64,000 nucleotides of DNA. It comes from Macrostomum lignano (taxonomy: Eukaryota). The notes under the pieces are model-generated. The model saw nothing but the letters and a program-made list of their open reading frames with translations, was not told the origin of the DNA and did not search any database. Of the stretch, positions 45,697-64,000 are shown piece after piece. Location: assembly GCA_002269645.1 (NCBI GenBank), contig NIVC01000100.1, forward strand, positions 950,208 to 1,014,207, in the 5' to 3' direction. The translations under genes were made by a program, and so were the position numbers. Numbering within the stretch: position 1 is the first letter of the stretch; each line of letters starts with the position of its first letter.

Positions 45697-48600
45697 CATC
45701 AGCAGCAACATATAGAGGCCGCTATCTACTTTGGAAACTTATTGCATGGTAAGAATCTCTTATGTTTGACTGTATACATAGTGCATGCATTATTTGTTAC
45801 TGCATACTTTGGAATATTACTGAAACCCCTCCCAAAATATATGCAGGCGAAATGAAATGGCGCCCCTTATAATGGAATGGCGTCCCCCTCAAATGAAATG
45901 GCGCCCCCCTCAAATGAAATGGCGCCCCCCTCAAATGGAATGGTGCCCCCATCAAATGGAATGGCGCCCCCCTCAAATGGAACGGCGCCCCCTCAAATGA
46001 AATGGCGCCTCCAATCAAATGAAATGGCGCCCCCCTCAAATGGAATGGCACCCCCCTCAAATGGAATGGCGCCCCCCTCAAATGGAATGCGCCCCCCTCA
46101 AATGGAATGGCGCCCCCCTCAAAAGGAATGGCGCCCCCCTCAAATAAAATGGCGCCCCCCTCAAATGGAATGGCGCCCCCCTCAAATGGAATGGCGCCCC
46201 CCTCAAATGAAATGGCGCTCCCCTCAAATGGAATGGCGCCTCCAATCAAATGAAATGACGCCCCAATCAAAACAAAATGGCGCCCCTCAACACCACTCGC
46301 ACCCACTCCAATGAATATGTGGCATCACGAGTTGAATTTTACATATCTTACTTAAGACTGAGATAATAATTTTAACAAGATCAACTCACAGATGCCTTCA
46401 GTTGGTGATTTTTATGAACAAATTTAAATTAGGCTATTCATACTCATGTATGAATTGATTGAGACAGCTTACAAGAATACTTGTATAACCCCAACCAAAT
46501 GCAGTGATTTTGTGAAGTGCGGCCACTTATTGTCAATGCTATCATAATAATCCTACATAACATAGCTGGGGATTTCAAGTCCTTTGTCTTCAATTTGATT
46601 CTCCAACAGGGTTGGGCCGTTGAAGGGGGTCGTGTTGGTTAATTTTGTCTTAAGTATTACATCTATTATAAGAACTCTGAGTCCTAACTGAATTGGACAC
46701 TTAGGGTAAGAATGAATATGAAGTGTTCTCAAATCTTTTACGGTCGGGGAGCTAATTAAAACTGGAATTTCTAACATTTCTATAACATCTATAAGGCAGT
46801 TGCACAATTCTAAATTCCTGTTATAACAAAAAAGTCAAAGACCTGTTCAAGAATTCCACTTCAATTGAAGGGCAGGGCGAGTCTGGTTTGAATAACCAAT
46901 TAGTTGAAATTGTTAAAGTTGTGAATGATTCCAAATCGGTGAATAATAGCGAATGAAAAGAGGTGTCAAAAATTGTGGGCAAGTTTAATTGCTGTTAAAA
47001 TCTTTCAGCTAATCTAACAATTGAACTGGAATTAGAATGGCTGTCGAGAATGCATATTCAAATGGGAAAATTTCGCTTATAAAAGTGTCTAAATTCCGAG
47101 AGGGCATTGTCACGCGGTATAGTTCAGTTACAATGACTGGGATGTCTTGCTGACAATGGCTATAGTTGCATTGTGTTGTGTGCTGTGGTCAACTGCAGGC
47201 AGGCCACGTATCTCACACTTGGTGTCTAATTGATCCTTACACGATTGGTTGCGTAATCTCTATGAGGTAGTATATCTAGCATAATATTGTTGAGCTTGAG
47301 TCTGTTGTGTACACAGCTATATTTATCTATATTTGTTTAAATTATAACCGTCTTAAATGGCGAAAGCATGCGTGGAAGTTTCGTGTTAAGGTGGGACAGA
47401 TGGTGCCCAATTAGGTGATAAAACTATTTGTCATGGCGACAAGATATTGCTGTTGTTAGTTGATGCTGTTTGAAAGAGGTTTGAGATGAAAGAGAAAAGA
47501 GAGAATAGGAGAGGAGAGGAGAGGAGAGGAGAGGAGAAGAGAAGAGAAGAGAGGAGAGAGAGGAGAGGAGAGGAGAGGAGAGGAGATGAGAGAGAGGAGA
47601 GAGAGGAGAAGAGAGAGATGAGATGAGCTAAGTGAGACTCACAAGCCGTCCCCAGCAACAGCCCCAGCGCAGTCTCTTTCACCCCATCCCTCACAAAACC
47701 CACCCGCAGGCGGCTGTCCCAGCCTGCCGCCGCTGCCTCCGCCACCTCACTCGATGTCAAGCGGCACCTCAGTTGGAGTCTCCATGCCGCCGAGCTCCGC
47801 CCTGGCAACCACAGCCATCGCCGAATCCGCTGCAAACTTCTACCAGCCTCCGCATCAGCAGCCGCACCATCAGAGCCAGCATCCTCATCCTCATCATCAT
47901 CATCAGCAGCAGCAGCACTTTGCCATGCTTCAGCAGCACTGCGGAGCCGCTGCAGCCGCAGCTGCCGCCGCCGCGGCTGCCGCAGCATTTCGAGGCAAGC
48001 CGCGTCGCGGGATGCTCAGACGGGCGGTGTTCAGCGACCAGCAGCGGAAAGGCCTGGAGAAGATGTTCCAGCGGCAGAAGTACATCAGCAAGCCCGACAG
48101 GAAGAAGCTGGCTGACAAACTCGGATTGAAAGACTCGCAGGTGAGTGGATAGAGAGAGACTTGCTCTTTGCGGAGGGTGATAAAAGTATCGGTGAAATTG
48201 CGATTATTTTGATATTTTGAGTTCAGGGGCTAAGTTTTCATGAGATGAAAAGGAATTGAAGTTTATTGCCAAAAGACTAGATTATAATGAGATTTGCGTG
48301 TGATTCAGGTAAGATTTAGGTGAGATTCGGGTGAGATTTGGGTGAGATGTGAGTGAAATTTGGGTGAGATTCGGGTGAGATTTGAGGGAGATTTTGGTGA
48401 GATTTGTGTAAGATTCGGGTGAGATTTGTGTGAGATTCGGATGAGATTTGTGTGAAATTCGGGTGAGATTTGTGTGAGATTCGGGTGAGATTTGTGTGAG
48501 ATTCGGGTGAGATTTGTGTGAGATTCGGATGAGATTTGTGTGAGATTCGGGTGAGATTTGTGTGAGATTCGGGTGAGATTTGTGTAAGATTCGGGTGAGA

Positions 48601-51145
48601 TTTGTGTGAGATTCGGGTGAGATTTGGGTGAGATTCGGGTGAGATTTGTGTGAGATTCGGGTGATATTTGGGTGAGATTCGGGTGAGATTTGGGTGAATG
48701 TGGTCAAAATTTGGCCAAGTACTATTTCGGCAGATTAAAGGGATTTAATGGCCAAAATGGTAAAAATAGCCGTATTTTATCAGCGTTTCAAAATTCTTTC
48801 CACAGCATTGAGTTTCGTTGCTCAGAAATGTTTTCGTGGTCTCAAATTGATTGAATAAAAATTTGGGGTCTAACAATCTGCTCTCTCTCTCGCCCCAGTT
48901 TTTCTTTATAATCCTTTTCCAAAAGCTATACGCCACAATGTGAATTGCAGCAATTTTAACACCTATAAGGTAACCTAGCCAGATCAGTTTACAACTAGAA
49001 GTTAAGTCAATTTTAAAGGGCCTTTCTGGCTCCTGTCTGATTGTTCTGTAATCGATCTGAATTCATGACTCTTTAATAGGCCCCGCTGAGGTGTGAGAAA
49101 ATGCAGGCTAAATTCTCCCCTAGGACCCCTGTAATAACGGGATTAAGAAATTCAAGACACAATTTCTGCTGCCCCATGTAGAGAAACCGAATACTTGAGA
49201 GAACAATTTCTTGAGAATATGACGGTTTTTGCTTCAACATCTCAATTGAGTTCTTTAACCCCCCTTTTTCAATATAGTATTATCCTAGCTACCAAATGGA
49301 CCCGGAGCTAGCCCTGTACCACGTGGTTTAATACCATTGTTTACACTTCCACTGCCCGCCAGCCCTGAGCCCCGCTGATGAGGGAGGTGAAGAGGGAGTG
49401 AAGGAGAAGGTTGGTAAGAAAATAATCCCATCTACGAGCTAATAGGACTTCATCAAGTGAGTTTTGCGGAATTGAACAAATTTTATATAACTGCTGTGAT
49501 GACAAGTCGTTGACTTCTGACTCTCGGCGGGTTCCACCGAAGTCCCCGGCTATGGGCAAAAATTTGAATTTCAGCTAGAGCGGACGGGTTCATTCTCTAG
49601 TTAGGGCAAACACAGCTCAGTATAAATGCATGGGAATGAAATTAACAATCTTCCCCATAGGCCAAAGACTGAATTTATAGTTTCCTAGAGACCGCTTGTC
49701 AATACACACGCCAGTTTTGATGAGATGTTTGATTTTAGTCAAGGTTTTTTGATGTGGAACAAATATCCTCTCCATCTGTGTTCTTGACAACTGTTTCCTG
49801 AGAACGATCAAACTCAAACTAGGGTTTGAAATGCAACCAGCAATGACTTGTTGGAATGCTTGTTGGAGTTTGCCTTCGAGAAAATGTTTTAACTCAAAGA
49901 AATAATTTGGGCTCCTCATCGAATGGCCTCATAGAATACTCGTAGCGCTTATACAATGGCGGTTATAGAATGACGCTCATAGGATGACGTTCATAGGATG
50001 ACGCTCATAGAATGACGCTCATAGGATGACGTTCATAGGATGACGCTCATAGAATGACGCTCATAGAATGACGCTCATAGGATGACGCTCATAGGATGAC
50101 GTTCATAGAATGACGCTCATAGAATGACGCTCATAGGATGACGCTCATAGGATGACGTTCATAGGATGACGCTCATAGAATGACGCTCATAGAATGACGC
50201 TCATAGGATGACGCTCATAGGATGACGTTCATAGGATGACGCTCATAGAATGACGCTCATAGAATGACGCTCATAGAATGACGCTCATAGAATGACGCTC
50301 AAAAAATGGCGCTCATAGAATGATGCTCAAAGAATGACGCTCATAGAATGACGCTCATAGGATGACGCTAATAGGATGACGTTCATAGGATGACGCTCAT
50401 AGAATGACGCTCATAGAATGACGCTCATAGAATGACGCTCATAGAATGACGCTCAAAAAATGGCGCTCATAGAATGATGCTCAAAGAATGACGCTCATAG
50501 AATGACGCTCATAGGATGACGCTAATAGGATGACGTTCATAGGATGACGCTCATAGAATGACGCTCATAGAATGACGCTCATAGAATGACGCTCAAAAAA
50601 CGGCGCTCATGAAATGACGCTCAAAGGATGACGCTCATAGAATGACGCTCATAGAATGATGCTCATAGAATGACGCTCATAGAATGACGCTCATAGAATG
50701 ACGCTCAAAAAACGGCGCTCATGAAATGACGCTCAAAGGATGACGCTCATAGAATGACGCTCATAGAATGACGCTCATAGAATGACGCTCATAGAATGAC
50801 GCTCATAGAATGACGCTCATAGAATGACGCTCAAAAAACGGCGCTCATGAAATGACGCTCAAAGAATGACGCTCATACAGTTTCCCCACCAACTCGTTCT
50901 CCAACCAATAGGTGAAAATCTGGTTTCAAAACCGACGCATGAAATGGCGCAACTCCAAGGAGCGCGAACTCCTGACCTCTTCGTCCGGATCGTCGGTCAG
51001 GAAAGACTCCTCATCAATTGCGGCTGGTTCAGGCGCTGCCAATGTTGAATGTCTGCAGGATGCCGTGAGACCCGAGAGCTTTGAATACGAAATGCAGTTG
51101 GCTGGCGAGACAGCGCCCGAACCCACAACCGATGAGGACCACTGA
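44458..51145 (+). CDS. DBX: Dbx (developing brain homeobox) transcription factor; join(44458..44704,45563..45748,47710..48140,50912..51145), 365 aa
   Basis: KPRRGMLRRAVFSDQQRKGLEKMFQRQKYISKPDRKKLADKLGLKDSQ|VKIWFQNRRMKWRNSKERELL is the Dbx homeodomain signature; eh1-like LKFGMSAIL in exon 1. GT-AG junctions in phases 1,1,0. Confidence 0.93.
44765..45405. repeat. 19-bp repeat (ATCTACCTAATAAACTACC)n in Dbx intron 1
   Basis: Direct reading. Confidence 0.95.
45848..46290. repeat. 20-21-bp repeat (AAATGGAATGGCGCCCCCCTC)n in Dbx intron 2
   Basis: Same family as 24230-24682. Confidence 0.92.
47480..47628. repeat. Polypurine (GAGAG/GAGGA)n tract upstream of Dbx exon 3
   Basis: Direct reading. Confidence 0.9.
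48288..48700. repeat. 22-bp repeat (GAGATTCGGGTGAGATTTGTGT)n in Dbx intron 3
   Basis: Direct reading. Confidence 0.93.
49965..50878. repeat. 14-bp repeat (ATGACGCTCATAGA)n in Dbx intron 3, more than 60 copies
   Basis: Direct reading; ends about 30 nt before the exon 4 acceptor. Confidence 0.96.
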
Positions 51146-51517
51146 TTGACTGATTTATTGATATAGTAATTTTATTGTCTTTGTCTTTTACTCTATGTTT
51201 AAGTTAAAGTAATTATGTTTCATTTTCATAAGCAGTTTAAAACATTTTTGCCGCGTTTTTTTTTCTTGTCGTATATAGAAATTCATCATTGACCTCCTAT
51301 ATTTGTATTGTAGTCAGTTTGCCTTTTCTTAGTTACTATCGCTGACCATGTACATCTATTATCCTATTAGCTTGTTTAAGTTCGCTTGCACTTATAATTC
51401 TCCGCAAGGGATACTGTTTCTTAGAATCGATGTAAATACACGCAGAAGTAGGTTTTTCAAACTTTAATGTCAGTCAGCATCAAACTTGGGTTGTCAGTGA
51501 GTAGTAGGGCGAATTAT

Positions 51518-51950
51518 GATACTGCCGCACTAGCACTGGCGAGATAGGCGGCAATGCAAATGTATAGGGAAAAATACACTGCGGAGATATGAGCCCTATC
51601 TCTGTGCATTGGGGACGGCTAAGCACTGCAGAGATATGAGCTCTATCTCTGTGCATTGGGGACGGCTAAGCACTGCAGAGATATGAGCTCTATCTCTGTG
51701 CATTGGGGACGGCTAAGCACTGCAGAGATATGAGCTCTATCTCTGTGCATTGGGGACGGCTAAGCACTGCAGAGATATGAGCTCTATCTCTGTGCATTGG
51801 GGACGGCTAAGCACTGCGGAGATAGAGGCGATTCATGATACTGCCGCACTAGCGCTGGCGAGATAGGCGGCAAAAAGGATATAGGAAAAATACACTGCGG
51901 AGAGGATCCTATCTCTGTGCATTGGGAACGGCTAAACATTGCAGAGATAA
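51518..51950. repeat. 47-bp hairpin-forming tandem repeat (about 5 copies) nested in a larger duplicated block; putative Polinton TIR
   Basis: Period 47 (51623, 51670, 51717, 51764, 51811); stem CAGAGATA/TATCTCTG. GATACTGCCGCACTAGC block at 51518 and 51837. Confidence 0.85.
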
Positions 51951-52273
51951 GAGGGGTGGCCAATCTCTGTGCTCTGTGTTAGGGTAAGGTTATAAAGTTT
52001 TACAACTGCACAGAGGACGGCTGGTGTTGCTTACCTGGATAAGGGGACGGGGGGATACACTAATTACAGCCAGTGGCCTCTATAACGGTAAAGTAATTAT
52101 TACCTGAGCATGGCTGGATGTTCATATACGATATGATAAGGAGAGGGCATGCATGTACAAATTACTATATAAGCAGCCACGCAAGTACAAATAAACAAAT
52201 AGACAAAAACAAATTGTATAAAAGGATTTTAAAAACCTTACTACTTCTAAAAAACAACTCTTTCTCTTTCAAA

Positions 52274-53683
52274 ATGAAAACTTTTAAAAGTTGTCATAGA
52301 GACCTCTATGAGGTCTGTATAAGCTGCGAAGTGTGCCTGCTTGGAGGCGTGTCCCCAAGACACCACGAGAATGAGAACTGTCTGGTCTCATGCTGGTTGG
52401 CATGCGACCAGTGCGGCACCGTCGAAGCTCTGCAGGAGGGAAAAATTCCAGCATATCATCGAGGACACAAGATCGTCAGCGATGACAAGAAAAAGCAAGA
52501 AAGTAACCGCTGGAAAGTAATCCGCGCCATCAAAAAGAGCAACGAGAGAGAAAAGAAGAGCCAGCAGAAAAAGGGAGCCAACAGGAGTCTGCTATCAGCT
52601 CACTTGAGTCAAGTAATTGACTCTACATTGAAGAGGATGAGGCCAAGCGGGTCTTCAGCAGCTGCAGAATTTGAAGTTGAGCTGTCTGCTGGAGTCGAGG
52701 CTGCTGGAGTCGAGGCTGCTGGAGTCGAGGCTGCTGGAGTCGAGGCCGCTGGAGTCGAGGCTGCTGGAGTCGAGGCTGCTGGAGTCGAGGCTGCTGCTGT
52801 CATAAACTTCATAGAGGAAGATGTCCTGGATCAGTTCCTCAGGGAATTCAACGCTGGTCAGCAGCAGCAGCAGCAGCAACCTGTCTCTTCGGTTCCGGTG
52901 ATTGCTGGAAAACAACTTCATCTAATTGAAGACGACCACGAAATGGAAATCCTAGAAGAGGAGGGCAGCGACAATGAGTCGCATAATGCAATTGTGCCAC
53001 CTGCAGCTCCAGCCGCCCCAGCTGCTCTGGCCGCCCCAGCTGCTCTGGCCGCCCCAGCTGCTCTGGCCGCCCCAGCTGCTCTGGCCGCCCCAGCTGCTCT
53101 GGCCGCCCCAGCTGCTCCAGCCGCCCCAGCTGCTCTGGCCGCCCCAGCTGCTCCAGCCGCCCCAGCTGCTCTGGCCGCCCCAGCTGCTCCAGCCGCCCCA
53201 GCTGCTCTGGCCGCCCCAGCTGCTCTGGCCGCCCCAGCTGCTCTGTCCGCCCCAGCTGCTCTGTCCGCCCCAGCTGCTCTGGCCGCCCCAGCTGCTCTGG
53301 CCGCCCCAGCTGCTCTGGCCGCCCCAGCTGCTCCAGCCGCCCCAGCTGCTCTGGCCGCCCCAGCTGCTCTGGCCGCCCCAGCTGCTCTGGCCGCCCCAGC
53401 TGCTCTGGCCGCCCCAGCTGCTCTGGCTGCCCCAGCTGCTCCAGCCGCCCCAGCTGCTCTGGCCGCCCCAGCTGCTCCAGCCGCCCCAGCTGCTCTGGCC
53501 GCCCCAGCTGCTCTGGCTGCCCCAGCTGCTCCAGCCGCCCCAGCTGCAGCCTCTACAATTCCAGCTTCTCAATCCGAAACTCCACCCGTGCCAGCTGGAG
53601 TTGCCTTCTTTCTGCCTCCTGTCGGCGGGGCTGGGTACGAGGTAACGATTTTCGAAAATCGTATTAGAATTGTGCCGCTGTGA
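52274..53683 (+). CDS. Polinton accessory ORF: Cys/His-rich N-terminus, basic patch, (AAGVE)n and (AAPAAL/AAPAAP)n repeats
   Basis: Open 52118-53683, likely ATG at 52274. CISCEVC..HH..C...C..C..CDQC cluster; unique sequence on both sides of the repeats. Confidence 0.6.
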   Translation: MKTFKSCHRDLYEVCISCEVCLLGGVSPRHHENENCLVSCWLACDQCGTVEALQEGKIPAYHRGHKIVSDDKKKQESNRWKVIRAIKKSNEREKKSQQKKGANRSLLSAHLSQVIDSTLKRMRPSGSSAAAEFEVELSAGVEAAGVEAAGVEAAGVEAAGVEAAGVEAAGVEAAAVINFIEEDVLDQFLREFNAGQQQQQQQPVSSVPVIAGKQLHLIEDDHEMEILEEEGSDNESHNAIVPPAAPAAPAALAAPAALAAPAALAAPAALAAPAALAAPAAPAAPAALAAPAAPAAPAALAAPAAPAAPAALAAPAALAAPAALSAPAALSAPAALAAPAALAAPAALAAPAAPAAPAALAAPAALAAPAALAAPAALAAPAALAAPAAPAAPAALAAPAAPAAPAALAAPAALAAPAAPAAPAAASTIPASQSETPPVPAGVAFFLPPVGGAGYEVTIFENRIRIVPL

Positions 53684-54568: not shown

Positions 54569-57500
54569 ATGGTTGAGCACTCCTGGATGGAGCAGGAGAA
54601 TGACCACTCATGGATGGAGAATGACCACTCATGGATGGAGAATGACCACTCATGGATGGAGAATGACCACTCATGGATGGAGAATGGCCACTCGTGGATG
54701 GAGGATGACCACTCGTGGATCGAGTATGACCACCCTTGGGTGGACCATGACGTCAGCAGCGAGTCAGCAGCCAGCAGCGAGTCGGCAGCCAGCAGCGAGT
54801 CGGCAGCCAGCAGCGAGTCGGCAGCCAGCAGCGAGTCAGCAGCCAGCAGCGAGTCAGCAGCCAGCAGCGAGTCAGCAGCCAGCAGCGAGTCAGCAGCCAG
54901 CAGCGAGTCAGCAGCCAGCAGCGAGTCAGCAGCCAACAGCGAGTCGGTGACTGATGCACACCAAGGTAAGTGCCTTTATTTATCCTTTTCAACTTACTTA
55001 AAAATTTTCTTATCAATGCGATGTATATTATGCAGTCTAAAATTTTAGTCCAAAGAATGGGAGAAGGGGAGATAAAAGACTTTATACCGGTAGGGTTGTA
55101 CATGTATGCTTGGGTACAGACGTTTAGTTTAGTATCTTTGATATTTGAAACTATAGGCAGCAAAAAACAAAAATATTATCCTAAAACCACAAACCAGGTT
55201 CAACAGTCAGCTTCAGCAGAGTTGCCCAAGCCTATGATCAATCACTGGAAATACTGAGGCTCAGATCGAGTCACCCAGACACGCTTCCGTCAGAATTTTT
55301 TGTCCAAGCTGGAGACAAAATTATTGAGGCAGTTCAGCAAAGAATTTCAAGACATCATTACAAAGTTCAGCTAAAGGCGAATATTCGAATGGTCCGAATA
55401 AGAGATGGGGAGATGCTTGCCGAAGAGGACAGATGGATAAGCTGTAAAATGCAGGCCCTAGACCTAGGTGGTGAAGCAGGCCGTTTAAACAACTGGTTGA
55501 TTGAGCAGGAGCAGGAGTTGGAGAGGATCTGTAGTATGATTAATACGAACGGCAGTGGCTGGACAATTAAACAAATTAATTTTCTAGACATCAACCTTGC
55601 CAGGTACAATCCAATTCGATTTCGCCAGGGCAGAGCCGTTAGATTCAATCTTCCTGCCAGTTTGAAGAACAAAAAGGCTGTTATCAATCCACCGAGCACA
55701 GGCAAAGACTGTTTCCTGTACGCCTGTCTCGCTGCACTGCACAGCGCCGATCCGAAAGTTCAGAAATCGCCCAACAGAATATCCTCTTACGATGAATGGT
55801 TGCGTGAGCTGGACTTTGCAGAAATCTCCATGCCAGTGAGTGTCGCTGATATCGATCGCGTCGAGTCTAACAATCCAGGAATTTGCATTTCTGCGTTCTC
55901 TTGGCAGCAGGGCAGTGTGACTCTTCTCCGTCGCCGCAAGCATGAGTCAGATGACCGAAGACACCTCATGCTTTTGCTAGTTAAAGACAGCTACGGATCG
56001 GAGCACTGGTGTGCAATTACTAATTTTGACAGGTTAATGAACAGTCGTAATGGTCCCGCCATGAGGAAGTGGTGCACGAAATGTTTAACATCATTTTATA
56101 GCAACGAGAGGCTTCAAGAGCACAGGAACGAATGCAGCATTACTGCAGAAAATCCTGTCAAAGAAACGCTTCCAGTTCCAGGACAGAATGAAATAAAGTT
56201 CCGAAACTGTCAAAACACTGTCAGTCCACCATTCGTTGCCTATGCCGACCTGGAAGCCATTTTGCGAGCGAACACAGACCCTGCTAACCTGATCTCAAAG
56301 CATGAACCATGTGCAGCAGCTTTTCTTGCAGTGCCTCGTGAAGGCATGACAGGACCTCCGCTTAGGCCAGAAGGAGACATGTACAAGGTCTTTTGCAATG
56401 CGGACCCTGATGAGTGTATCCTTGGTTTTCTCAAATCTCTTGAAAGCCTGGCTCAGGATATATTTCACTGGAACCAGAAGCATAGCCACCAGCCGGCTGA
56501 CCGATCATCCGCGACCGTCATGGATGATTTCAATTCTGCTGAGGTATGTCACTACTGCAAGAAGAACTTTAAAAGTTCTACAGATAAACATTTTGACCAC
56601 GATCATTTAAATGGACAGTACAAAGGTGCAGCATGTCAAGAATGCAACCTGCGAGCACAGCTCCGACGCCGGTTTCTGCCCCTGGTTTTTCACAACTTAG
56701 GCGGCTACGACCTTCATCTTCTACTTTCCACTGCGCTTGGGAGCATGAAAAATTGGAAACTTAGTGTTGTTCCGCAATCATCCGAGCGATACTTGTCACT
56801 AAGGGCGGAATTCCCTGTTGCAAGTTACGTAAAGAACGGAAAAGTTGTGCCAATCATGTTTACAATTCAGTTCATCGACTCGCTCTGCTTTTTGAAGGGA
56901 AGTTTGTCCAATTTGTTTGCTAATCTTCCCGAAGCTGAATGCAAGCTGACAATGCAAATGCTTGAGTCAAGACCACATCTTTCAAGAGAGCTACTTCGAA
57001 AAAAAGGGATTTTCCCATATGATTACCTCACAGGATTTGAGATTCTCGAGCAGTCGGTTTTGCCGCCTAAAGATGCTTTTTTTAATCGACTTTCCGATCG
57101 GGGAATTTCCGACGACGACTACAATAGAGCAAGAGCGGCATGGGCGGCATTTCAATGCAAAAGTTTGAAGGATTATATGCTCGCCTATCTTGAAATGGAT
57201 GTAAGGCAGCTGGCTGACATTTTCGAGACATTCCGACAGGCCAGTCTGAAAGAGGACGGATTGGATCCGGTACACTACTTTACTACTCCTGGTTTGTCTT
57301 ACGACTCAGCTCTAAAGTCGACTGGAGTGGTTCTAGAGCAGCTGACTGATGCTGACATGTATCATCTGTTTGAGAAGGGAATACGAGGAGGCATGTCCTT
57401 CATTAATGTGCATTGCGTCAAAGGTAATAATCCTAGCTTGCCAGGTTATGATGATCAGCAAGAGAGTGTAAGCCTCATGCCGATCGATATGAACAACTTG

Positions 57501-58847
57501 TATGGCTTTGCCCTGTCGCTTCCGCTTCCATGCAGGGAATTCAGGTGGGTACCGGAACAGGAAATCCAGTTCTGGGACTCCAATCGGTTTCTGTCACTCA
57601 ATCCAGAAGCCGAGATCGCCTACCTTGTTCAACTCGATCTAGAATACCCAGCTGAGATTCACGATTCGACTCAGGAGTTACCGTTTGCACCTGAAAAATC
57701 AAAACCACAGCCAGATCAATTCTCGCCGTACATGGCCGAACTATGGAAAGAGATTGCTGAACAGCGAACTGGCAATGCTGAAGCTAAGTTTCAAGCAACG
57801 GAGAAGCTTCTACTCACCTGTACCGACAAGGATTCTTACGTAGTTCACAGCACCGTTTTAAGATTTTACCTGCAACACGGAATGCGGATCAAGTGCGTCA
57901 AAAAAATGATTTCGTTCAAGCAGGAAAATATTTTCGCGCCGTACATTGCCAGCAACAATGAAAAAAGAGCTTTGGCAACTTCCGAGTTTGCTAAGGATTT
58001 TTACAAATTGAAAAACAATTCTCTCTTTGGAAAAACTATGGAGAACGTTCGAAAAAGATGCGATGTTCGAATTTGCACTAACCAGACTCAAGCAGAAACT
58101 TGCGCCTCTCGACCAAACTGTGCCGCATTCTCGATTATCAATGAGTCGTTGAGCATTTTTCAGCTCAAAAAAGATAAAGTCACGCTTGACAAGGCCATTT
58201 TCGTTGGCCAGGCAGTTCTCGATCTCTCTAAGATGGCCATGTACAGCCTACTATATGACAGGCTCCGACCGCTGTTCTGTCATTCAGACGGTTCCAGAGA
58301 CATGATGCTTTGCGGAGGTGATACTGACTCATTTTTTCTAGCTTTCAAGAATCATGATTTAACATCGGAGGTAATCCCGAAGCTTAGAGAGGAAAAAATA
58401 CTTGACACATCCAACTATTCTCGAGACCATCCGCATTTCTCTGAAGAGTTAAAAGGAAAGCTGGGCTGCGTTAAAGATGAATCTGCTGGTGGAATTTACC
58501 AGGAGTGGATTCTTTTGCGTCCAAAACTTTATTCGTTTCTCCCTGCCGAGAATTCGAGTGCAAAGATCAAGAAAACTGCCAAAGGCGTGAAGCAGTCAGT
58601 AGTAAGACAGCAAATTTCGCATGCGAACTATGTCGACGCGTTCGAGTCCAAGCAAGAGCAGATGGTTGCCATGACAGCGATTGTTTCCAAGAAACACGAA
58701 ATCTTCACGTCGGTCATGGAGAAAAGAAGCCTATCGGTGTGGGAGGATAAGCGAGTGTGGCTTAGCAGTAATCGAAGCCTGCCCTACGGACACTATGCGC
58801 TGACGCCCGCATCCCACGATCAGCTGAAGCGCATCCGACTGGTCTAG
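54569..58847 (+). CDS. polB: Protein-primed family B DNA polymerase; core ORF 55389..58847, proposed join(54569..54965,55198..58847), 1348 aa
   Basis: Exo I ADLEA, Exo II FHNLGGYDLH, Exo III YLEMDV; pol motifs DMNNLYG, KLKNNSLFGK, GDTDS, RPKLYS, AKGVK; C2H2 finger and endonuclease VII-like CHYC..DHDHLNG..C..CN insert. No frameshift in the core. Confidence 0.95.
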
Positions 58848-59429: not shown

Positions 59430-60002
59430 TTATTCAATGGAAAGAACTACATTGAGTAGACGCATGCTATCGGTATGCAACTGATTCAAGGACCGAGCTC
59501 CACTGAGAACAAAAGAGCCGCTGTGAAAAAGCAGACATTTACAAAAGTTTAAATTGAAAATTAAAGCAGAAAAGGATTCTGGTTCATATTCGGCGTTTGG
59601 GATAATTGATTTTAACATTAATAAGGAAAGTGCGGAATGAACTGGGAGCTGTCCATGAGCAGTAATAGTTTTAATTCGAACACAAATTGTTTGATGAGGC
59701 AGCAGTTGAGCCGGCACTCTCCGATGCAGCATAGCCACGAAGCGACGGGCAGCCCTTTTGGCGTCTGCGTGGGTCTTGGCACCGCAGATGCTCAGTTGCC
59801 CAGTAGGGTAGAGTAGGAGAGTCACTCTGGGAATCCGCATCCGCTTGATGAGCACCCGGGGCCAGACGGGCCGGTAGATCACATGAGCCATGCTGAGAGC
59901 CAGTTCCCGTAGAGGCAGCTGAGCGCCCCTGCCACCATCCAGTCTCAGATCTACTCCGCCAACCAGATTGGTCACTCTTAGGGCTGTAGCTGGTGGGCTC
60001 AT
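59430..60002 (-). CDS. TATA-box-binding protein (TBP)-like protein inside the Polinton, about 190 aa
   Basis: Two TBP repeats: VTNLVGGVDL..LPLRELAL..YRPVWPRVLIKRMRIPRVTLLLYPTGQLSICGAKTHADAKRAARRF and IKTITAHGQL..YEPESFSALIFNL..KCLLFHSGSFVLSGARS. ATG at 60002; the frame is open to 60041. Confidence 0.88.
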   Translation of the reverse strand: MSPPATALRVTNLVGGVDLRLDGGRGAQLPLRELALSMAHVIYRPVWPRVLIKRMRIPRVTLLLYPTGQLSICGAKTHADAKRAARRFVAMLHRRVPAQLLPHQTICVRIKTITAHGQLPVHSALSLLMLKSIIPNAEYEPESFSALIFNLNFCKCLLFHSGSFVLSGARSLNQLHTDSMRLLNVVLSIE

Positions 60003-60522
60003 TTCGATCGTCAACTTCTTCACCAAATCTGCTTCTGCCAACTTTACTGCTCGTGTGCCACGGACACTGCTCGCTTCTTAAGTTGATGCAGAACTTTGGC
60101 TTAAGCCAACTGTAGTGCAGCAACGAATTTCTCACTGCACAGCCAGTATCTGAATCTTCAGTCGAGGGTGCTCCCAAATCTTCTAGGTTATAAACCTGTC
60201 TTCCAAGCAGCTCAGTCAGAAAAATCGACTTCCTTTCCCCATTTGACCAGATCGGACCACTGGCAATGCTCAGAATGTCTTCCGCCAGTTCCATGTACGG
60301 ACGGGTTCCATCATTCCACTTAAACTGGTGCAGACTCTTAGATAGCTGTCTGTAGTAAACTCGCATGTCAGGTGAGACTCTCTCCCATGGATACGGAGGT
60401 GCGTACACATGGTGAGCAATGTGGTAGCTCCCCGCTCTGATTTGAACAACTGCCAACTCCTTCACAACAAATTTTTTGCTTGTGCTGTTGCACGGGAATC
60501 CTTGGAAGTCAATGTAGTTCAT
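59671..60522 (-). CDS. Conserved Polinton ORF, DnaQ/DEDD-exonuclease-like N-terminal domain (IDFQGF..KFVVKELAV..PPYPW..HQFKWNDG..Y)
   Basis: Motif pattern recalled from Maverick/Polinton ORFs; the last 110 or so codons overlap the TBP ORF in another frame. Confidence 0.6.
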   Translation of the reverse strand: MNYIDFQGFPCNSTSKKFVVKELAVVQIRAGSYHIAHHVYAPPYPWERVSPDMRVYYRQLSKSLHQFKWNDGTRPYMELAEDILSIASGPIWSNGERKSIFLTELLGRQVYNLEDLGAPSTEDSDTGCAVRNSLLHYSWLKPKFCINLRSEQCPWHTSSKVGRSRFGEEVDDRNEPTSYSPKSDQSGWRSRSETGWWQGRSAASTGTGSQHGSCDLPARLAPGAHQADADSQSDSPTLPYWATEHLRCQDPRRRQKGCPSLRGYAASESAGSTAASSNNLCSN

Positions 60523-60551: not shown

Positions 60552-61244
60552 TCAGTCCACCTTCTTATATACTTTTCTGGCAGGCAATTTCAGCCAGGCT
60601 GTGTTGCTCCCGTACCCCTTGACTAGACTCTCCTGTTCTTTCTCCAGTTCACCCCCTCTGCTGGTTGCCATTTTCTTCTTAACTGATTTACCAACAGCGG
60701 AAAGCGGAACATTAAGCTTTTTCTGCTGCAGAAAATCGATGAACTCGTTCCACCCAACTGGTTCACGCTCACATGGCGAATCCCTCACTGTGTGCTGAAT
60801 CAAGTCCAGTATGTTTGAGGAAGGGATTGACGTGCCTGCGATTTCCACCTCCCCGTTTTCACAAACTCGAATCAGCTCTGGATTGGTGGACAGGATCGTC
60901 CACAGACTGCGAGCCCTGGTTTTGAATTTCTGTGGCACCGACTTGCTGATCTTCTCTTCCCAGGTGCTTATCTGGGGTGTCTCTGTTTTCATCAACTTGG
61001 CTTCAGTATTGCGTGCTCCTTCTTTTCCAGCGTGCTTGCGCTTGGCCAGCAAACTTTGCATTGCACTTTGGTACATGGCGGTTTTCACATCTTCTGGACA
61101 ATCCTCGGCATACAAGATGTCATCGCATTTCTTCTGAGCCTGCTTCAAGTCAGCTTCAGTGGTAGTCTCATTTGGCTTCAAATTCTGCATCAACATCTCA
61201 TACTCTGCTTTAGGAATCAGAACCATTTCTGAAAATTTGTTCAT
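60552..61244 (-). CDS. Conserved hypothetical Polinton protein (230 aa)
   Basis: SVPQKFKTRARSL..L..ENGEVEIAGTSIPSSNILDLI..PVGWNEF..L...NVP pattern typical of a recurrent Maverick ORF (from memory); intact. Confidence 0.7.
   Translation of the reverse strand: MNKFSEMVLIPKAEYEMLMQNLKPNETTTEADLKQAQKKCDDILYAEDCPEDVKTAMYQSAMQSLLAKRKHAGKEGARNTEAKLMKTETPQISTWEEKISKSVPQKFKTRARSLWTILSTNPELIRVCENGEVEIAGTSIPSSNILDLIQHTVRDSPCEREPVGWNEFIDFLQQKKLNVPLSAVGKSVKKKMATSRGGELEKEQESLVKGYGSNTAWLKLPARKVYKKVD
60564..60571 (-). promoter_or_regulatory. Candidate TATA box (TATATAAG) about 45 nt upstream of the exonuclease-like/TBP ORF pair
   Basis: Plus-strand CTTATATA at 60564-60571; ATG at 60522. Confidence 0.35.
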
Positions 61245-61548
61245 TTTGCTTCTTCTTCTTTACCAGCTTAAGCAGAATCGGGAGTATTTTGATGAAGCCA
61301 GCCTTCAACAAGTCTGTCTTTCTTCTTTTGTGAGTAATTTTTCGAATTATCTCTTTTGACTTTGCAAGAACAGCTTTTTCATCGAGCGAAAACGATAGAT
61401 TGTTTTGTAAGAGATTATGGCAGGCCTCGACAAGAAAATAACGCACTTCTTTTGGACAATTTTTTATCAACAGCCGCTTGAAGCGCACGGTATATTTAGG
61501 TGACGCAAGAACCGCAAAAAGACTTGCATATGAATCAAGCACTTCCAT
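61210..61548 (-). CDS. Small basic conserved Polinton protein (possible core/DNA-condensing protein)
   Basis: LVEACHNLLQNNLSFS..K..L..IIRKI..KRRK..L..AGFIKILPILL; ATG at 61548; overlaps the next ORF by 35 nt. Confidence 0.65.
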   Translation of the reverse strand: MEVLDSYASLFAVLASPKYTVRFKRLLIKNCPKEVRYFLVEACHNLLQNNLSFSLDEKAVLAKSKEIIRKITHKRRKTDLLKAGFIKILPILLKLVKKKKQNEQIFRNGSDS

Positions 61549-61589
61549 TGCGATGAAAACAATAGCTGATAAAAACAAGCTTCACTTTC

Positions 61590-62235
61590 TTAAGCAAATA
61601 CAAGATGGGGTCGCTGGTTGGGCAGAATTCTGGCCCGCACTCGCAGCTCATCGGGAGTTGATGGTGAAAGTCTAGGAACAGGTAGGCTCCCCTGCCCTGC
61701 GCGGTCACGTGCTTGAACACTGACAGCAGAAAGCCGGGCTTCTCTGTAAAGCACTGCCTGCCCAGTGCTGCAATCTGCAGCTGGTCTCGGGGTTTTTCAA
61801 GATAGCTAAGTACATTACATTCAAGCTCATTGTTCGCGACTCTTTTCCCTTGAAAAATATATTCTGAGTCAGCATCACCAAAAAGCACGGCAAGTGATGT
61901 GCGATTCCTGTGAAAAAATTTCGCATTGAAGCAGAGTTTGAAGTTTCCTCTATTAAGTCATCGAAAACAACCAGGTCATTGGGCCTAAGTGCTGCCTCGA
62001 TGTTGGTGGGAAATCCCTGGCGCAGCTGCACACCTAGGCTGTTCAGTTCTGCATGGCCTGCCTGTGAGATCCCATAGTACCACAGAACTCTGCCAGGCTT
62101 CACATCAAACATGACGTCTCTGTACTGGATCAGGTGTTCGACAAAGGTTGTTTTTCCTGCATTGGTGGGCCCGCAGACAATCATGCAGCTTCCCTGCCTG
62201 AGGCGGATATCGTAGCAAACTTGCTTTTCTCCCAT
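61590..62235 (-). pseudogene. A32/FtsK-like DNA packaging ATPase with two 1-nt deletions
   Basis: Walker A GPTNAGKT, Walker B LVVFDD, LTQNIF. KNP|RDQLQI needs +1 C at 61789-61792; HQ|TPDELRVRARILP needs +1 at about 61658. Confidence 0.88.
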
Positions 62236-62344
62236 GTTTAATGCATAAATATTAGAAATCACGGACATCTTTTTCTTAAGTTGGCTTCAAACCTCTGTAA
62301 GATTCTATCATTCAAATGATTTTTCTCATTAGCATGCAAATGCT

Positions 62345-62769
62345 TCAAAATCCCTCAAATGACCGATTGAACAGAAACTTTTGATAAGCAAAATAGATGC
62401 AAAACATTCCGCATTTATTAGAGTTAGCACATTGAACTCTGTTTATATTGCTTCGGAGCCAAAAGCCAGTTGTTTTAATCTCTCGAAACAAATTATAAAC
62501 CAAAGATAAAATTTCAGGTTCCCAGCCGAGGGAGTTGAACAACTCAATGCGATTTCCTTGCCCAACATAGCACACCACCCAGTGACCAAATGAGCCATTG
62601 TGCTGAAGTAGGACAAAAACAAACTTGTTTTCAAAGGAAATTGATGATCTAAATTTTCTTTTACATTCAAGGGCAGAGAATTTTTATAGCGCAAATGTAA
62701 AGTAACTATGAGAAATTTTTGGTAAGGCAAAAATTTTCTGGCGAGATTAAGTAGTTGAATTGCATCCAT
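62345..62769 (-). pseudogene. Adenain-like cysteine protease, frameshifted
   Basis: GHWVV (His), FNSLG, Q..NSNKCGMFC (Gln/Cys). The N-terminal part (MDAIQLL..) is in a different frame, with the shift at about 62640-62680. Confidence 0.82.
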
Positions 62770-62774
62770 GTCAA

Positions 62775-64000
62775 TTAAGAGGAATAGTCCAGCAAAAGCT
62801 CTCGGTGCTTGGTGACCTCAATCAGCGAGTCATACAGGCACATAGCAATCAGGGACACCGCTTCATTCAGAGCCTGTTGGAAGCGAATCTCCAGCCGCAG
62901 GTTGCCCTCCTTCTGTCCGTACCACAGAGCCGCTCCTCGGGTGTGAGATCGAATGCAAACACCGTGGTGTTGTTGGAGAAGAGCTGGTAGGGGATCCACG
63001 GACCGAGTTTGTGTGGCTTGCAGATTGACAGCTTTTCAGGTAGTGCAAGTATTCTCTTACGAAAGGAATTGTTTTCAGGTGTGAAGGCGCCGTGGCACAC
63101 GGTTTCCCCACCTTTCTTTAGAGCCAATCGGCTAAGGTTGAAGCTCTGGAACTGTAACGGGCTCGCGTGATGATGACCGTTGAATGCTCGGTGGCTCACG
63201 AAGGCCAGCATGATGAACTTCGGCAATTTTCCATGAGTGAATCCTTCAATGTTTTTTGACTGAATACCTGGGGTAGGATGAAGTTCTGCATTTCAGTTTC
63301 GCTCGATGGGATACAGTGCATTTTGGTTTGTCAGCCCCTGCTCATGGGCCAGGCTGATGTGGGGCATCACTTTGACTCGGCGAAGATGCAGAATGCTGTG
63401 AGAGATTTCCATTCGGTATGCCGCGTTGTTTGCATTCGGGGTTCTGATGGCAAAGGCCCCATCGCTGGGGACCAGTTTGATGTGCAGGTGCAGATTGCTT
63501 AGCAGAAACACTGGGCACTGGAAAACATCGCTGAAGAGCGGCCCCGCATACTCCATCCATTGGGATTCCCTGTGGCTCTCCGTGTGCTCTTCAGCTGCCG
63601 AGTTCGGCTCCAGGAAGCCAGCAGGGTAAAGTTTTAGTTGCTGGGCATCGGATGAGCTCATTAGTGCTTTGAAGTACGCATGGTAGGGATAGAGCTGGTC
63701 TCCACCAGACACCACTCGCTGGTTAATGCTCACAATTACATCTGAGAAGGCTGTAGACAGAACAAAATTTTCTGGGTGCACGTCACTGTCTCTGCGCTCG
63801 GTGATGATGCCATCTCCATCTCGAACATCCTCCCTCAGCAAACCCCATCCAGTCTCACAAGGCGGCAGCGAATATAAAGAAAAGAATTAAGCAGATCTGT
63901 ATATTCATCGGCAGATTGGTGCAGTCAAATTCAATGGGAGAGTTTGCAACAATGGAATTATACTGGGTGAATATCAACATAAGTAGCTTTTTCAATGCAG
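62775..64000 (-). pseudogene. Polinton major capsid protein (double jelly-roll), multiply frameshifted, 5' end beyond the window
   Basis: Segments YVDIHP/SPIEF/YTDL, LYPYHAYF, GPLFSDVFQ, LHLRRVKV, GKLPKFIMLAFVSHRAFNG, FAFDLTP and GNLRLEIRF..YDSLIEV..RELLLDY lie in alternating frames. Confidence 0.9.

Follow-up and report, generated by a model that had tools for sequence, protein, structure and literature searches.

A conserved TATA-binding protein gene of Polintons and its candidate link to family-specific variants of the TATA box

Whether animal Polintons are working viruses, and how their capsid genes are expressed without an RNA polymerase, is an open question. Many giant viruses carry a viral RNA polymerase besides a TATA-binding protein (TBP), and TBP and TFIIB form a textbook, DNA-dependent pair. 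The closest described systems are the TBP mimics of herpesviruses (KSHV ORF24, EBV BcRF1 and HCMV UL87), which according to the accessible text of PMC6541308 act on late promoters with a TATT box, and the TBPs of giant viruses. The latter are described in the accessible part of PMC7221094 as almost always accompanied by a viral TFIIB and as conserving the first stirrup glutamate (C.L3.2) in about 40% of cases, the two C-lobe stirrup glutamates being the TFIIB-binding signature. Recognition of the 5' half of the box falls to the C-lobe of TBP, where yeast Pro191 is proposed to exclude every first base except T (PMC1636458, accessible text). For Polintons themselves, the accessible text of PMC8502044 calls the virion genes a supported inference, and the legend of Fig. 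5 of this paper includes the abbreviation TBP for the map of a MELD virus (Starrett et al. 2021, PMC8502044; bioRxiv 10.1101/697771); the readable text of its animal adintovirus maps (Suppl. Fig. S2) has no such label. No study of a Polinton TBP was found in the literature covered, which lies outside Repbase, subscription papers and other Polinton surveys, and the accessible parts of PMC7786948, PMC12220804 and PMC10675990 hold nothing relevant to one. The gene described here is a conserved Polinton gene that has been noted once in passing in print, and its tie to family-specific TATA variants is new. A preliminary description of the locus had accepted that its proposal would fall if the gene were already catalogued as routine in its clade; the gene does recur in many Polinton families and is not peculiar to this element, but its record in print is one figure-legend label in the text accessible to us.

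The window, that is the whole stretch of 64,000 nucleotides of Macrostomum lignano DNA that was analysed, contains the following features of the element:

51500-51824, plus strand: left terminal inverted repeat, starting AGTAGTAG and matching both ends of a sibling copy
52274-53683, plus strand: left-arm ORF with a Cys-rich head and repeats, preceded by canonical boxes
55389-58847, plus strand: protein-primed DNA polymerase B (PolB; PF03175), convergent with the TBP gene
59430-60002, minus strand: TBP ORF, 190 aa, two lobes in a single intact frame
59620-59700, no strand: putative crossover zone within the TBP gene, between the lobes, where identity between subfamilies drops
59671-60522, minus strand: 283-aa ORF without a Pfam match, its last 110 codons overlapping TBP lobe 1 in another frame
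60552-61244, minus strand: conserved 230-aa Polinton ORF
61210-61548, minus strand: conserved 112-aa ORF
61705-62268, minus strand: packaging ATPase (P-loop and homology), its frame broken near the 3' end in the assembly
62443-62769, minus strand: adenain-like protease, partial frame (PF00770 in sibling copies)
62867-64000, minus strand: major capsid protein (MCP), in pieces by single-base indels; the contig ends at 64000

The element is a Polinton, of which the window contains the left part. A sibling copy of 16.7 kb has a terminal repeat of about 325 nt at both ends and a 6-bp target duplication, its inverted repeats starting with AGT as those of Polintons do, and the combination of a protein-primed polymerase with a retroviral-type integrase is present as PF03175 in the window and as rve plus chromo domains in siblings. 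Beyond the MCP the sibling copies carry this integrase (rve + chromo), a minor capsid candidate and a homolog of PC4/Sub1. The capsid genes were assigned by gene order, size and mutual homology, Pfam giving no match. In the window the ATPase, protease and capsid frames (61705-64000) are broken by single-base indels, several of which are absent from contigs of public runs; the breaks near the contig end are likely to be assembly errors, and introns in the capsid gene were rejected because the breaks are single-base indels not found in those contigs. Repeats of 47 nt lie within the terminal repeat (51577-51953). In the flanking host DNA there is a homeobox exon (47754-48152, plus strand), presumably Dbx/Hlx-like, 3.3 kb from the left end of the element, and a 15-nt tandem array lies by the insertion (49960-50880).

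The TBP gene is the last in the virion-gene run of this multi-copy Polinton. Its product matches PF00352 in two stretches with 87 bits (cut-off 22.9) and TBP chains of the PDB at E values of 2e-18 to 4e-10, and its predicted model (pLDDT 95.4) superposes on TBP chains with a TM of 0.83 and an rmsd of 1.8-2.6 A, the modelled chain having the saddle fold of ten strands and four helices. The preliminary description had proposed an intact two-repeat TBP fold, without an N-terminal extension and situated between PolB and the virion module, and these points are confirmed. Its start at 60041 has to be corrected: this position is a TTG, the conserved ATG is at 60002, and the 13 extra codons are not conserved, because an L064-type subfamily has a stop immediately 5' of the ATG. 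The gene is co-oriented with the virion genes, but not, as the wording of that description implied, with all element genes, PolB being convergent on the plus strand (55389-58847), and the overlap it had reported concerns one gene only, 332 nt being shared with the 3' end of the ORF at 59671-60522. The frame is indeed single and uninterrupted; the term intronless carries little weight, because the core of the host TBP has no interruption either. Contigs from four public runs guessed to be RNA span the stretch with no splice joints and are not counted as transcription evidence. A frameshift or splice fusing the 283-aa ORF to the TBP was rejected, since no joint was found, and the fused model P0009 and a few long frames fit single-base indels in individual copies.

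In lobe 1 of the protein N12 is kept, P48 occupies the position of the first intercalating Phe with W47 one residue before it, and Y65 is at Phe2; in lobe 2 T112 replaces the second Asn and T114 the Val, while F144 and F159 retain Phe3 and Phe4. E140 and E142 correspond to the C-lobe stirrup glutamates for TFIIB and S145 to yeast Pro191. The protein thus departs from the canonical set of four intercalating Phe, two Asn and a C-lobe Pro. The kept first Asn and replaced second one had been read correctly from the sequence. The four Phe had been given as W, Y, F, F, which stands for Y65, F144 and F159 but not for the first; the gapless alignment puts Pro48 at Phe1 and Trp47 just before it, which makes the set P(W)/Y/F/F.

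The tail of the 283-aa ORF over TBP lobe 1 (59671-60002) is open in 21 of 21 loci, including a distant family that is 38% identical. The chance of this under synonymous re-draws is 0.7-4% for the near family and 0.08-0.9% for the distant one, and the overlap is probably real dual coding. At its N-terminus this ORF has a D-x-(E/Q)-G-F motif, which may be DEDD-exonuclease-like.

The gene could be a mere passenger, a recent and decaying retrocopy of the host TBP, with the boxes described below arising by chance from codon use. Such a reading can point to the matches to the host TBP (L086), at just 46 of 175 aligned residues, and to stops in some copies among the 152 genome matches (150 of 231 candidates scored), of which 25 are full-length and identical. 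The host TBP and a TRF2-like gene are loci apart from the element gene. Pairwise dN/dS for nine representatives of the 19 near-family loci (36 pairs) was 0.06-0.45 in lobe 1 (36/36 pairs) and 0.06-0.39 in lobe 2 (27 of 36 pairs, the other nine being saturated). The element TBP is under purifying selection; the values lie far below 1 on both lobes, where the preliminary description had expected a value near 1 of a decayed retrocopy. Nor does the protein nest with its host counterpart: in quick trees with long branches, from which C889- and C181-type proteins were left out, grouping of the element TBPs with host TBP was rejected (AU test, p=0.0025) and grouping with TRF2 weakly so, at a borderline p=0.046. 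In these trees a branch with support of 82-86 separates the Polinton-type TBPs from the rest, a single origin being neither shown nor rejected. As the gene has saturated synonymous sites and is kept in four deep lineages and in elements of other hosts, and as the boxes are spread over more than one reading frame and over intergenic DNA, we regard a passenger retrocopy as very improbable.

Within the near family, identity between subfamilies falls near position 59680 from 95-98% to 60-80%, and public contigs branch there; where the TBP is 88% identical, the adjoining PolB reaches only 48%. From these sequences we infer that the PolB arm and TBP lobe 2 were exchanged between subfamilies by a crossover inside the TBP gene. 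Despite this swap of lobe 2, all aligned representatives have the contact residues T112, T114, E140, E142, F144, S/T145 and F159. Positive selection on lobe 2 was considered and rejected, given the low dN/dS and saturated synonymous sites; subfamily exchange fits better. The PolBs of L041, L042 and L045 are 46-49% identical to that of the window.

An exhaustive protein search returned many compact TBP-like proteins of 165-200 aa. Seven of these were used to scan metagenomes and gave 22 loci, which are not 22 independent cases because about nine assemblies supply them; 17 of the 22 have adjoining Polinton integrase, capsid or ATPase genes, three have a PC4-like neighbour (one below cut-off) and two are too short for a decision. 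In the same genome as the window, 11 of 14 further capsid-bearing Polinton loci, sampled from 100 listed, have a TBP-like ORF; of the three in which none was seen, one is cut by the contig start and two lack PolB in the stretch. The recurrence in other copies and species that the preliminary description had wished to see checked is found in many Polinton families, metagenome loci included, and one host, counting the window's family, has four deep TBP-bearing lineages. Divergent TBP-like ORFs scored 31.0 and 25.7 Pfam bits, above the cut-off, or 22.6, 21.2 and 20.8, below it, and one had no match. One was assigned to TBP by Atlas (0.96); another, of C181 type, was placed by fold with a TM of 0.72-0.75, its alignment containing TBP-like rows, and its profile comparison with TBP was weak (57%, one lobe). 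The families first read as TBP-less were rejected as such when a TBP was found beyond PolB, and no TBP-less Polinton of this lineage was found among the sampled loci, which leaves the connection of box and TBP without a negative control. Scans of IMG/VR gave only giant-virus-like and archaeal-type TBP loci without Polinton genes, some giving no match at all, and the three integrase loci from IMG/VR had neither a matching capsid gene nor a TBP and are not valid TBP-less controls. The protein search with the divergent TBP set returned no named relative in other animals.

Several further observations were made on these loci. In four of four C889-type families (L137, L152, L153, L154) the TBP-like ORF has no ATG and starts at a pyrimidine tract plus AG, and for this reason is probably a spliced 3' exon. 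In L154:2872-4290 and L164:1040-2446 an in-frame fusion joins a TBP-like domain and a deoxynucleoside kinase (PF01712, 85 bits). Accessory genes include dUTPases, a Fic-domain protein and a C2H2 zinc-finger ORF (L133:6494-7159, L148:2908-3774, L145:6922-7698, L137:7315-8217). Homologs of PC4/Sub1 (PF02229), which could be coactivators or single-strand binding proteins, occur in L048:2260-3054 and in L099, L102, L104, L106, L108, L114 and L150, often beside the TBP gene, some with the domain in tandem or joined to the N-terminal domain of RNase H1; none was detected in the C889 and C181 groups. In L110 and L111 the TBP and capsid genes are divergent, with 5' ends overlapping around a shared short AT-rich stretch. 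Seven IMG/VR contigs of 34-166 kb (L075-L079, L082, L085) have an archaeal-type TBP that stands apart from the Polinton group in the tree, and are probably archaeal viruses. Further compact TBP-like families are known without genomic context; of these, P0084 and P0091 share the Polinton C-lobe signature and P0021, P0032, P0061 and P0120 lack it.

The genes of the window are preceded by two kinds of box:

52166-52173, plus strand: canonical TATATAAG before the left-arm ORF
52217-52224, plus strand: TATAAAAG before the left-arm ORF
60075-60082, minus strand: CTTAAGAA, lying within the upstream ORF as the rare codon pair TTA-AGA, 80 nt ahead of the ATG of the TBP gene
60564-60571, minus strand: canonical TATATAAG before the 283-aa ORF
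61587-61594, minus strand: CTTAAGAA, 46 nt before the 112-aa ORF
62273-62280, minus strand: CTTAAGAA, 45 nt before the conserved ATPase ATG (62235)

In the window family CTTAAGAA lies on the coding strand 39-110 nt before the ATG of virion-arm genes, namely those for the integrase, minor capsid protein, ATPase, 112-aa ORF and TBP, and in the window-type subfamily also the MCP; it was not found within 120 nt before the protease or the MCP of L040 type. Some of these positions lie in intergenic DNA, others within the upstream gene, in various frames. Canonical TATA(T/A)AAG is mostly found before PC4, the left-arm ORF and the 283-aa ORF. Each of the six near-family arms has 5-6 copies of the core CTTAAGA where 0.5-0.75 would be expected, and none of the five PolB stretches has any; across the window as a whole it is not enriched. 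Of 31 matches to CTTAAGAA, 28 are found in the zone from 10 to 120 nt ahead of a listed start, which makes up 15% of the length, and the other three precede an ORF112 start missed by the search pattern; there is one match on the opposite strand. Since the six arms fall in two or three subfamilies the fair counting unit is one arm, and L048 taken by itself gives 6/6. Before the TBP gene the box is kept in 19 of 19 near-family loci, though TTA accounts for only 43 of 593 Leu codons.

Other families have at the same position TATAAG[C/T] (6-10 forward and 0-1 reverse per arm) or TATAAATA (7 forward, 0 reverse), and these boxes fix the register, so that CTTAAG is TATAAG with positions 1-2 changed. 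A less clean CGTAAA[C/T] was seen in one metagenome group, with 16 of 32 matches before a start and seven on the other strand. No clear box was found in three metagenome groups (L102-L104, L110-L111, L113-L118), and L099-L101 have a weak one only. Set side by side, the boxes read CTTAAGAA, TATAAGCA, TATAAATA and CGTAAAC.

Stray ATGs were counted after the 52 of 72 boxes that have a long ORF behind them, against a background of 0.012 per nt. There were 20 in 1248 nt from +6 to +29 and seven in 304 nt from +30 to +35, but between +36 and the start only two in 1221 nt (p=7e-5). Avoidance past about +35 fits a transcription start some 30-36 nt after the box, as with TATA, and not at the box itself; an initiator consensus at +30 was not visible.

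Late motifs of baculoviruses and poxviruses are initiators of TAAG or TAAAT type, and CTTAAG, TATAAG and CATAAG all include TAAG. The boxes might accordingly be real promoters with a reader other than the TBP, whose own role would lie elsewhere, for instance in transcription by Pol III or in replication of the ends; candidate readers are the 112-, 230- and 283-aa ORFs, the Cys-rich left ORF, the host TRF2 or a helper-virus polymerase that uses an initiator of that type. The three virion-arm ORFs have no assigned function (the 283-aa one no Pfam match), and a TBP-less control family is lacking, as said. Against a different reader are the tolerance of stray ATGs up to about +35, which fits a start about 30 nt downstream, the lack of TAAG in the TATAAATA and CGTAAAC boxes, and the presence of boxes in the C889 and C181 groups, where the 283-aa ORF was not detected. 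A separate reader seems to us distinctly unlikely.

The residues of the protein fit the change of box. We compared 34 Polinton-type rows (20 with element context, one with PC4 only and 13 without context, several being near-copies) with 35 rows of cellular, archaeal and other viral TBPs. The second Asn is kept in none of the 34 and in 35 of the 35 others; the Val after it is replaced in 34/34 and kept in 34/35; and Pro191 is kept in 6/34 as against 34/35. Ser145 at the Pro position goes with a C-starting box in the window family and Asn with the CGTAAA group, and four C889-type families keep the Pro and have TATAAG; two Pro-less lineages nevertheless carry T-starting boxes, and the pairing of Pro and box comes down to about two independent C-starting cases. 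Of the stirrup pair, the second acidic residue is present in 34/34 Polinton-type rows and the first in 27/34, a feature not unique to the group because the giant-virus-type L072 and L073 keep both. No TFIIB (PF00382) was found at Pfam level in the element ORFs scanned, which cover the window and the sibling and further loci, and the 15 TFIIB-family matches in the genome include none that is multi-copy like the element, whose TBP has at least 152. Since Phe1 is Pro here and the C889 group has lost the first Asn too, DNA binding may be weak or altered.

Such losses could also mean that the protein is a repressor or decoy, which would occupy the boxes or titrate TFIIB, NC2 or Mot1 while the host TBP activates, and so keep the integrated element quiet or dampen host transcription. 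That Phe1 has become Pro, that the distant family has lost the basic patch of helix 2 and that the C181 group has canonical boxes would agree with this, and the stirrup glutamates would suit a TFIIB sink as well. A decoy has, on the other side, no need for the C-lobe changes on the DNA face that are common to 34 of 34 rows. In addition, the host TBP (L086) has the Pro and should read C-starting boxes poorly, because they break the steric rule suggested for Pro-bearing TBPs (PMC1636458, accessible text). We therefore consider a repressor or decoy unlikely.

We favour, with a probability of about 0.6, the reading that the element TBP acts as a one-protein factor for the presumably late virion-arm genes, reading the TATA variants of its family and recruiting host TFIIB and Pol II. 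First, the host TBP/TFIID would start the canonical-TATA genes (left-arm ORF, PC4 and 283-aa ORF). The element TBP, judging from its fold and residues, would then bind CTTAAGAA, the TATAAG with its first two bases changed, through a C-lobe that lacks the Pro barring a non-T first base and in which the Asn and Val contacts are Thr. It would next recruit host TFIIB and Pol II, as suggested by the kept stirrup glutamates and by the lack of a TFIIB match among the element ORFs scanned, to start some 30-36 nt downstream. The variant box before the TBP gene would finally give positive feedback on TBP itself, and other Polinton families would each use a divergent TBP and a box of their own. A TBP of their own together with an altered TATA at the capsid-region genes suggests that the virion genes may be switched on by one private factor. 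Among the points against this mechanism are that several TBP-bearing families use boxes which host TBP could read (TATAAATA; TATAAG), and that the box stays constant while lobe 2 is swapped between subfamilies. The preliminary description had proposed that the element redirects the host polymerase with altered specificity; the family TATA variants and the C-lobe changes lend this real support, binding and activation being predictions from sequence.

In a wider reading, TBP would be an overlooked core gene of a large Polinton lineage, each family having a co-evolved private pair of TBP and TATA variant, and it would have been overlooked because it is often at or below the Pfam cut-off. We hold this tentatively, at somewhat less than even odds. 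If it is true, CTTAAG, CGTAAA, TATAAG and TATAAATA would be a natural orthogonal promoter set that needs one protein of 170-190 aa and host TFIIB and Pol II, and the elements would control the early-to-late switch themselves, like autonomous viruses, without a polymerase or helper virus. The locus offers a concrete candidate switch with a candidate binding site in a tractable animal with many intact copies, and a source of natural altered-specificity TBPs with which the part that Pro191 and other steric constraints play in TATA recognition may be probed.

Among known systems, the MELD-virus map resembles this locus in having a TBP-like gene in an element with an adintovirus-like PolB; its label belongs to a section on non-animal datasets, where the accessible text leaves the element unnamed and gives no distribution, selection, promoter or mechanism (PMC8502044). 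The TBPs of giant viruses (Nucleocytoviricota) are, like the Polinton protein, divergent, built of two lobes and encoded by a virus-like dsDNA genome. Unlike in giant viruses, neither a TFIIB nor an RNA polymerase gene was matched in the Polintons examined, whose TBPs retain the pair of acidic residues, and four giant-virus-type rows of our set keep the second Asn, which the Polinton type does not. The host TRF2/TLF, likewise a paralog of TBP, also has changed intercalating residues and does not favour the canonical TATA (PMC10005294, accessible text), but it is a host gene, and that of this host (L089) keeps both Asn and the Pro and loses Phe2-4. In the yeast altered-specificity TBPm3, which binds TGTAAA, C-lobe changes also shift recognition of the 5' half (PMC1636458, accessible text); TBPm3 is an engineered triple mutant, whereas the Polinton changes are natural and affect other residues, namely the Asn, Val and Pro positions and Val203, which becomes Lys. 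Closest in logic, to judge from the accessible text of PMC6541308, is the mimic of beta- and gamma-herpesviruses, which is likewise a viral TBP-like protein without a viral RNA polymerase, aimed at structural genes through a modified TATA about 30 bp before the start. The herpesvirus mimic acts as one of six members of a complex and makes its own contact with Pol II, whereas the Polinton has a bare TBP of 165-200 aa that keeps the TFIIB-binding glutamates; the box is changed at positions 1-2, varying by family, instead of at position 4 as in TATT. In place of the TATT box, the Pol II-binding domain and the five partners of the herpesvirus late complex, the element of the window has CTTAAGAA and a 190-aa core, and no herpesvirus-type partner protein was matched by Pfam among the element ORFs scanned. 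If our reading is true, this would be the most compact viral means of late transcription known, evolved independently of the herpesviruses.
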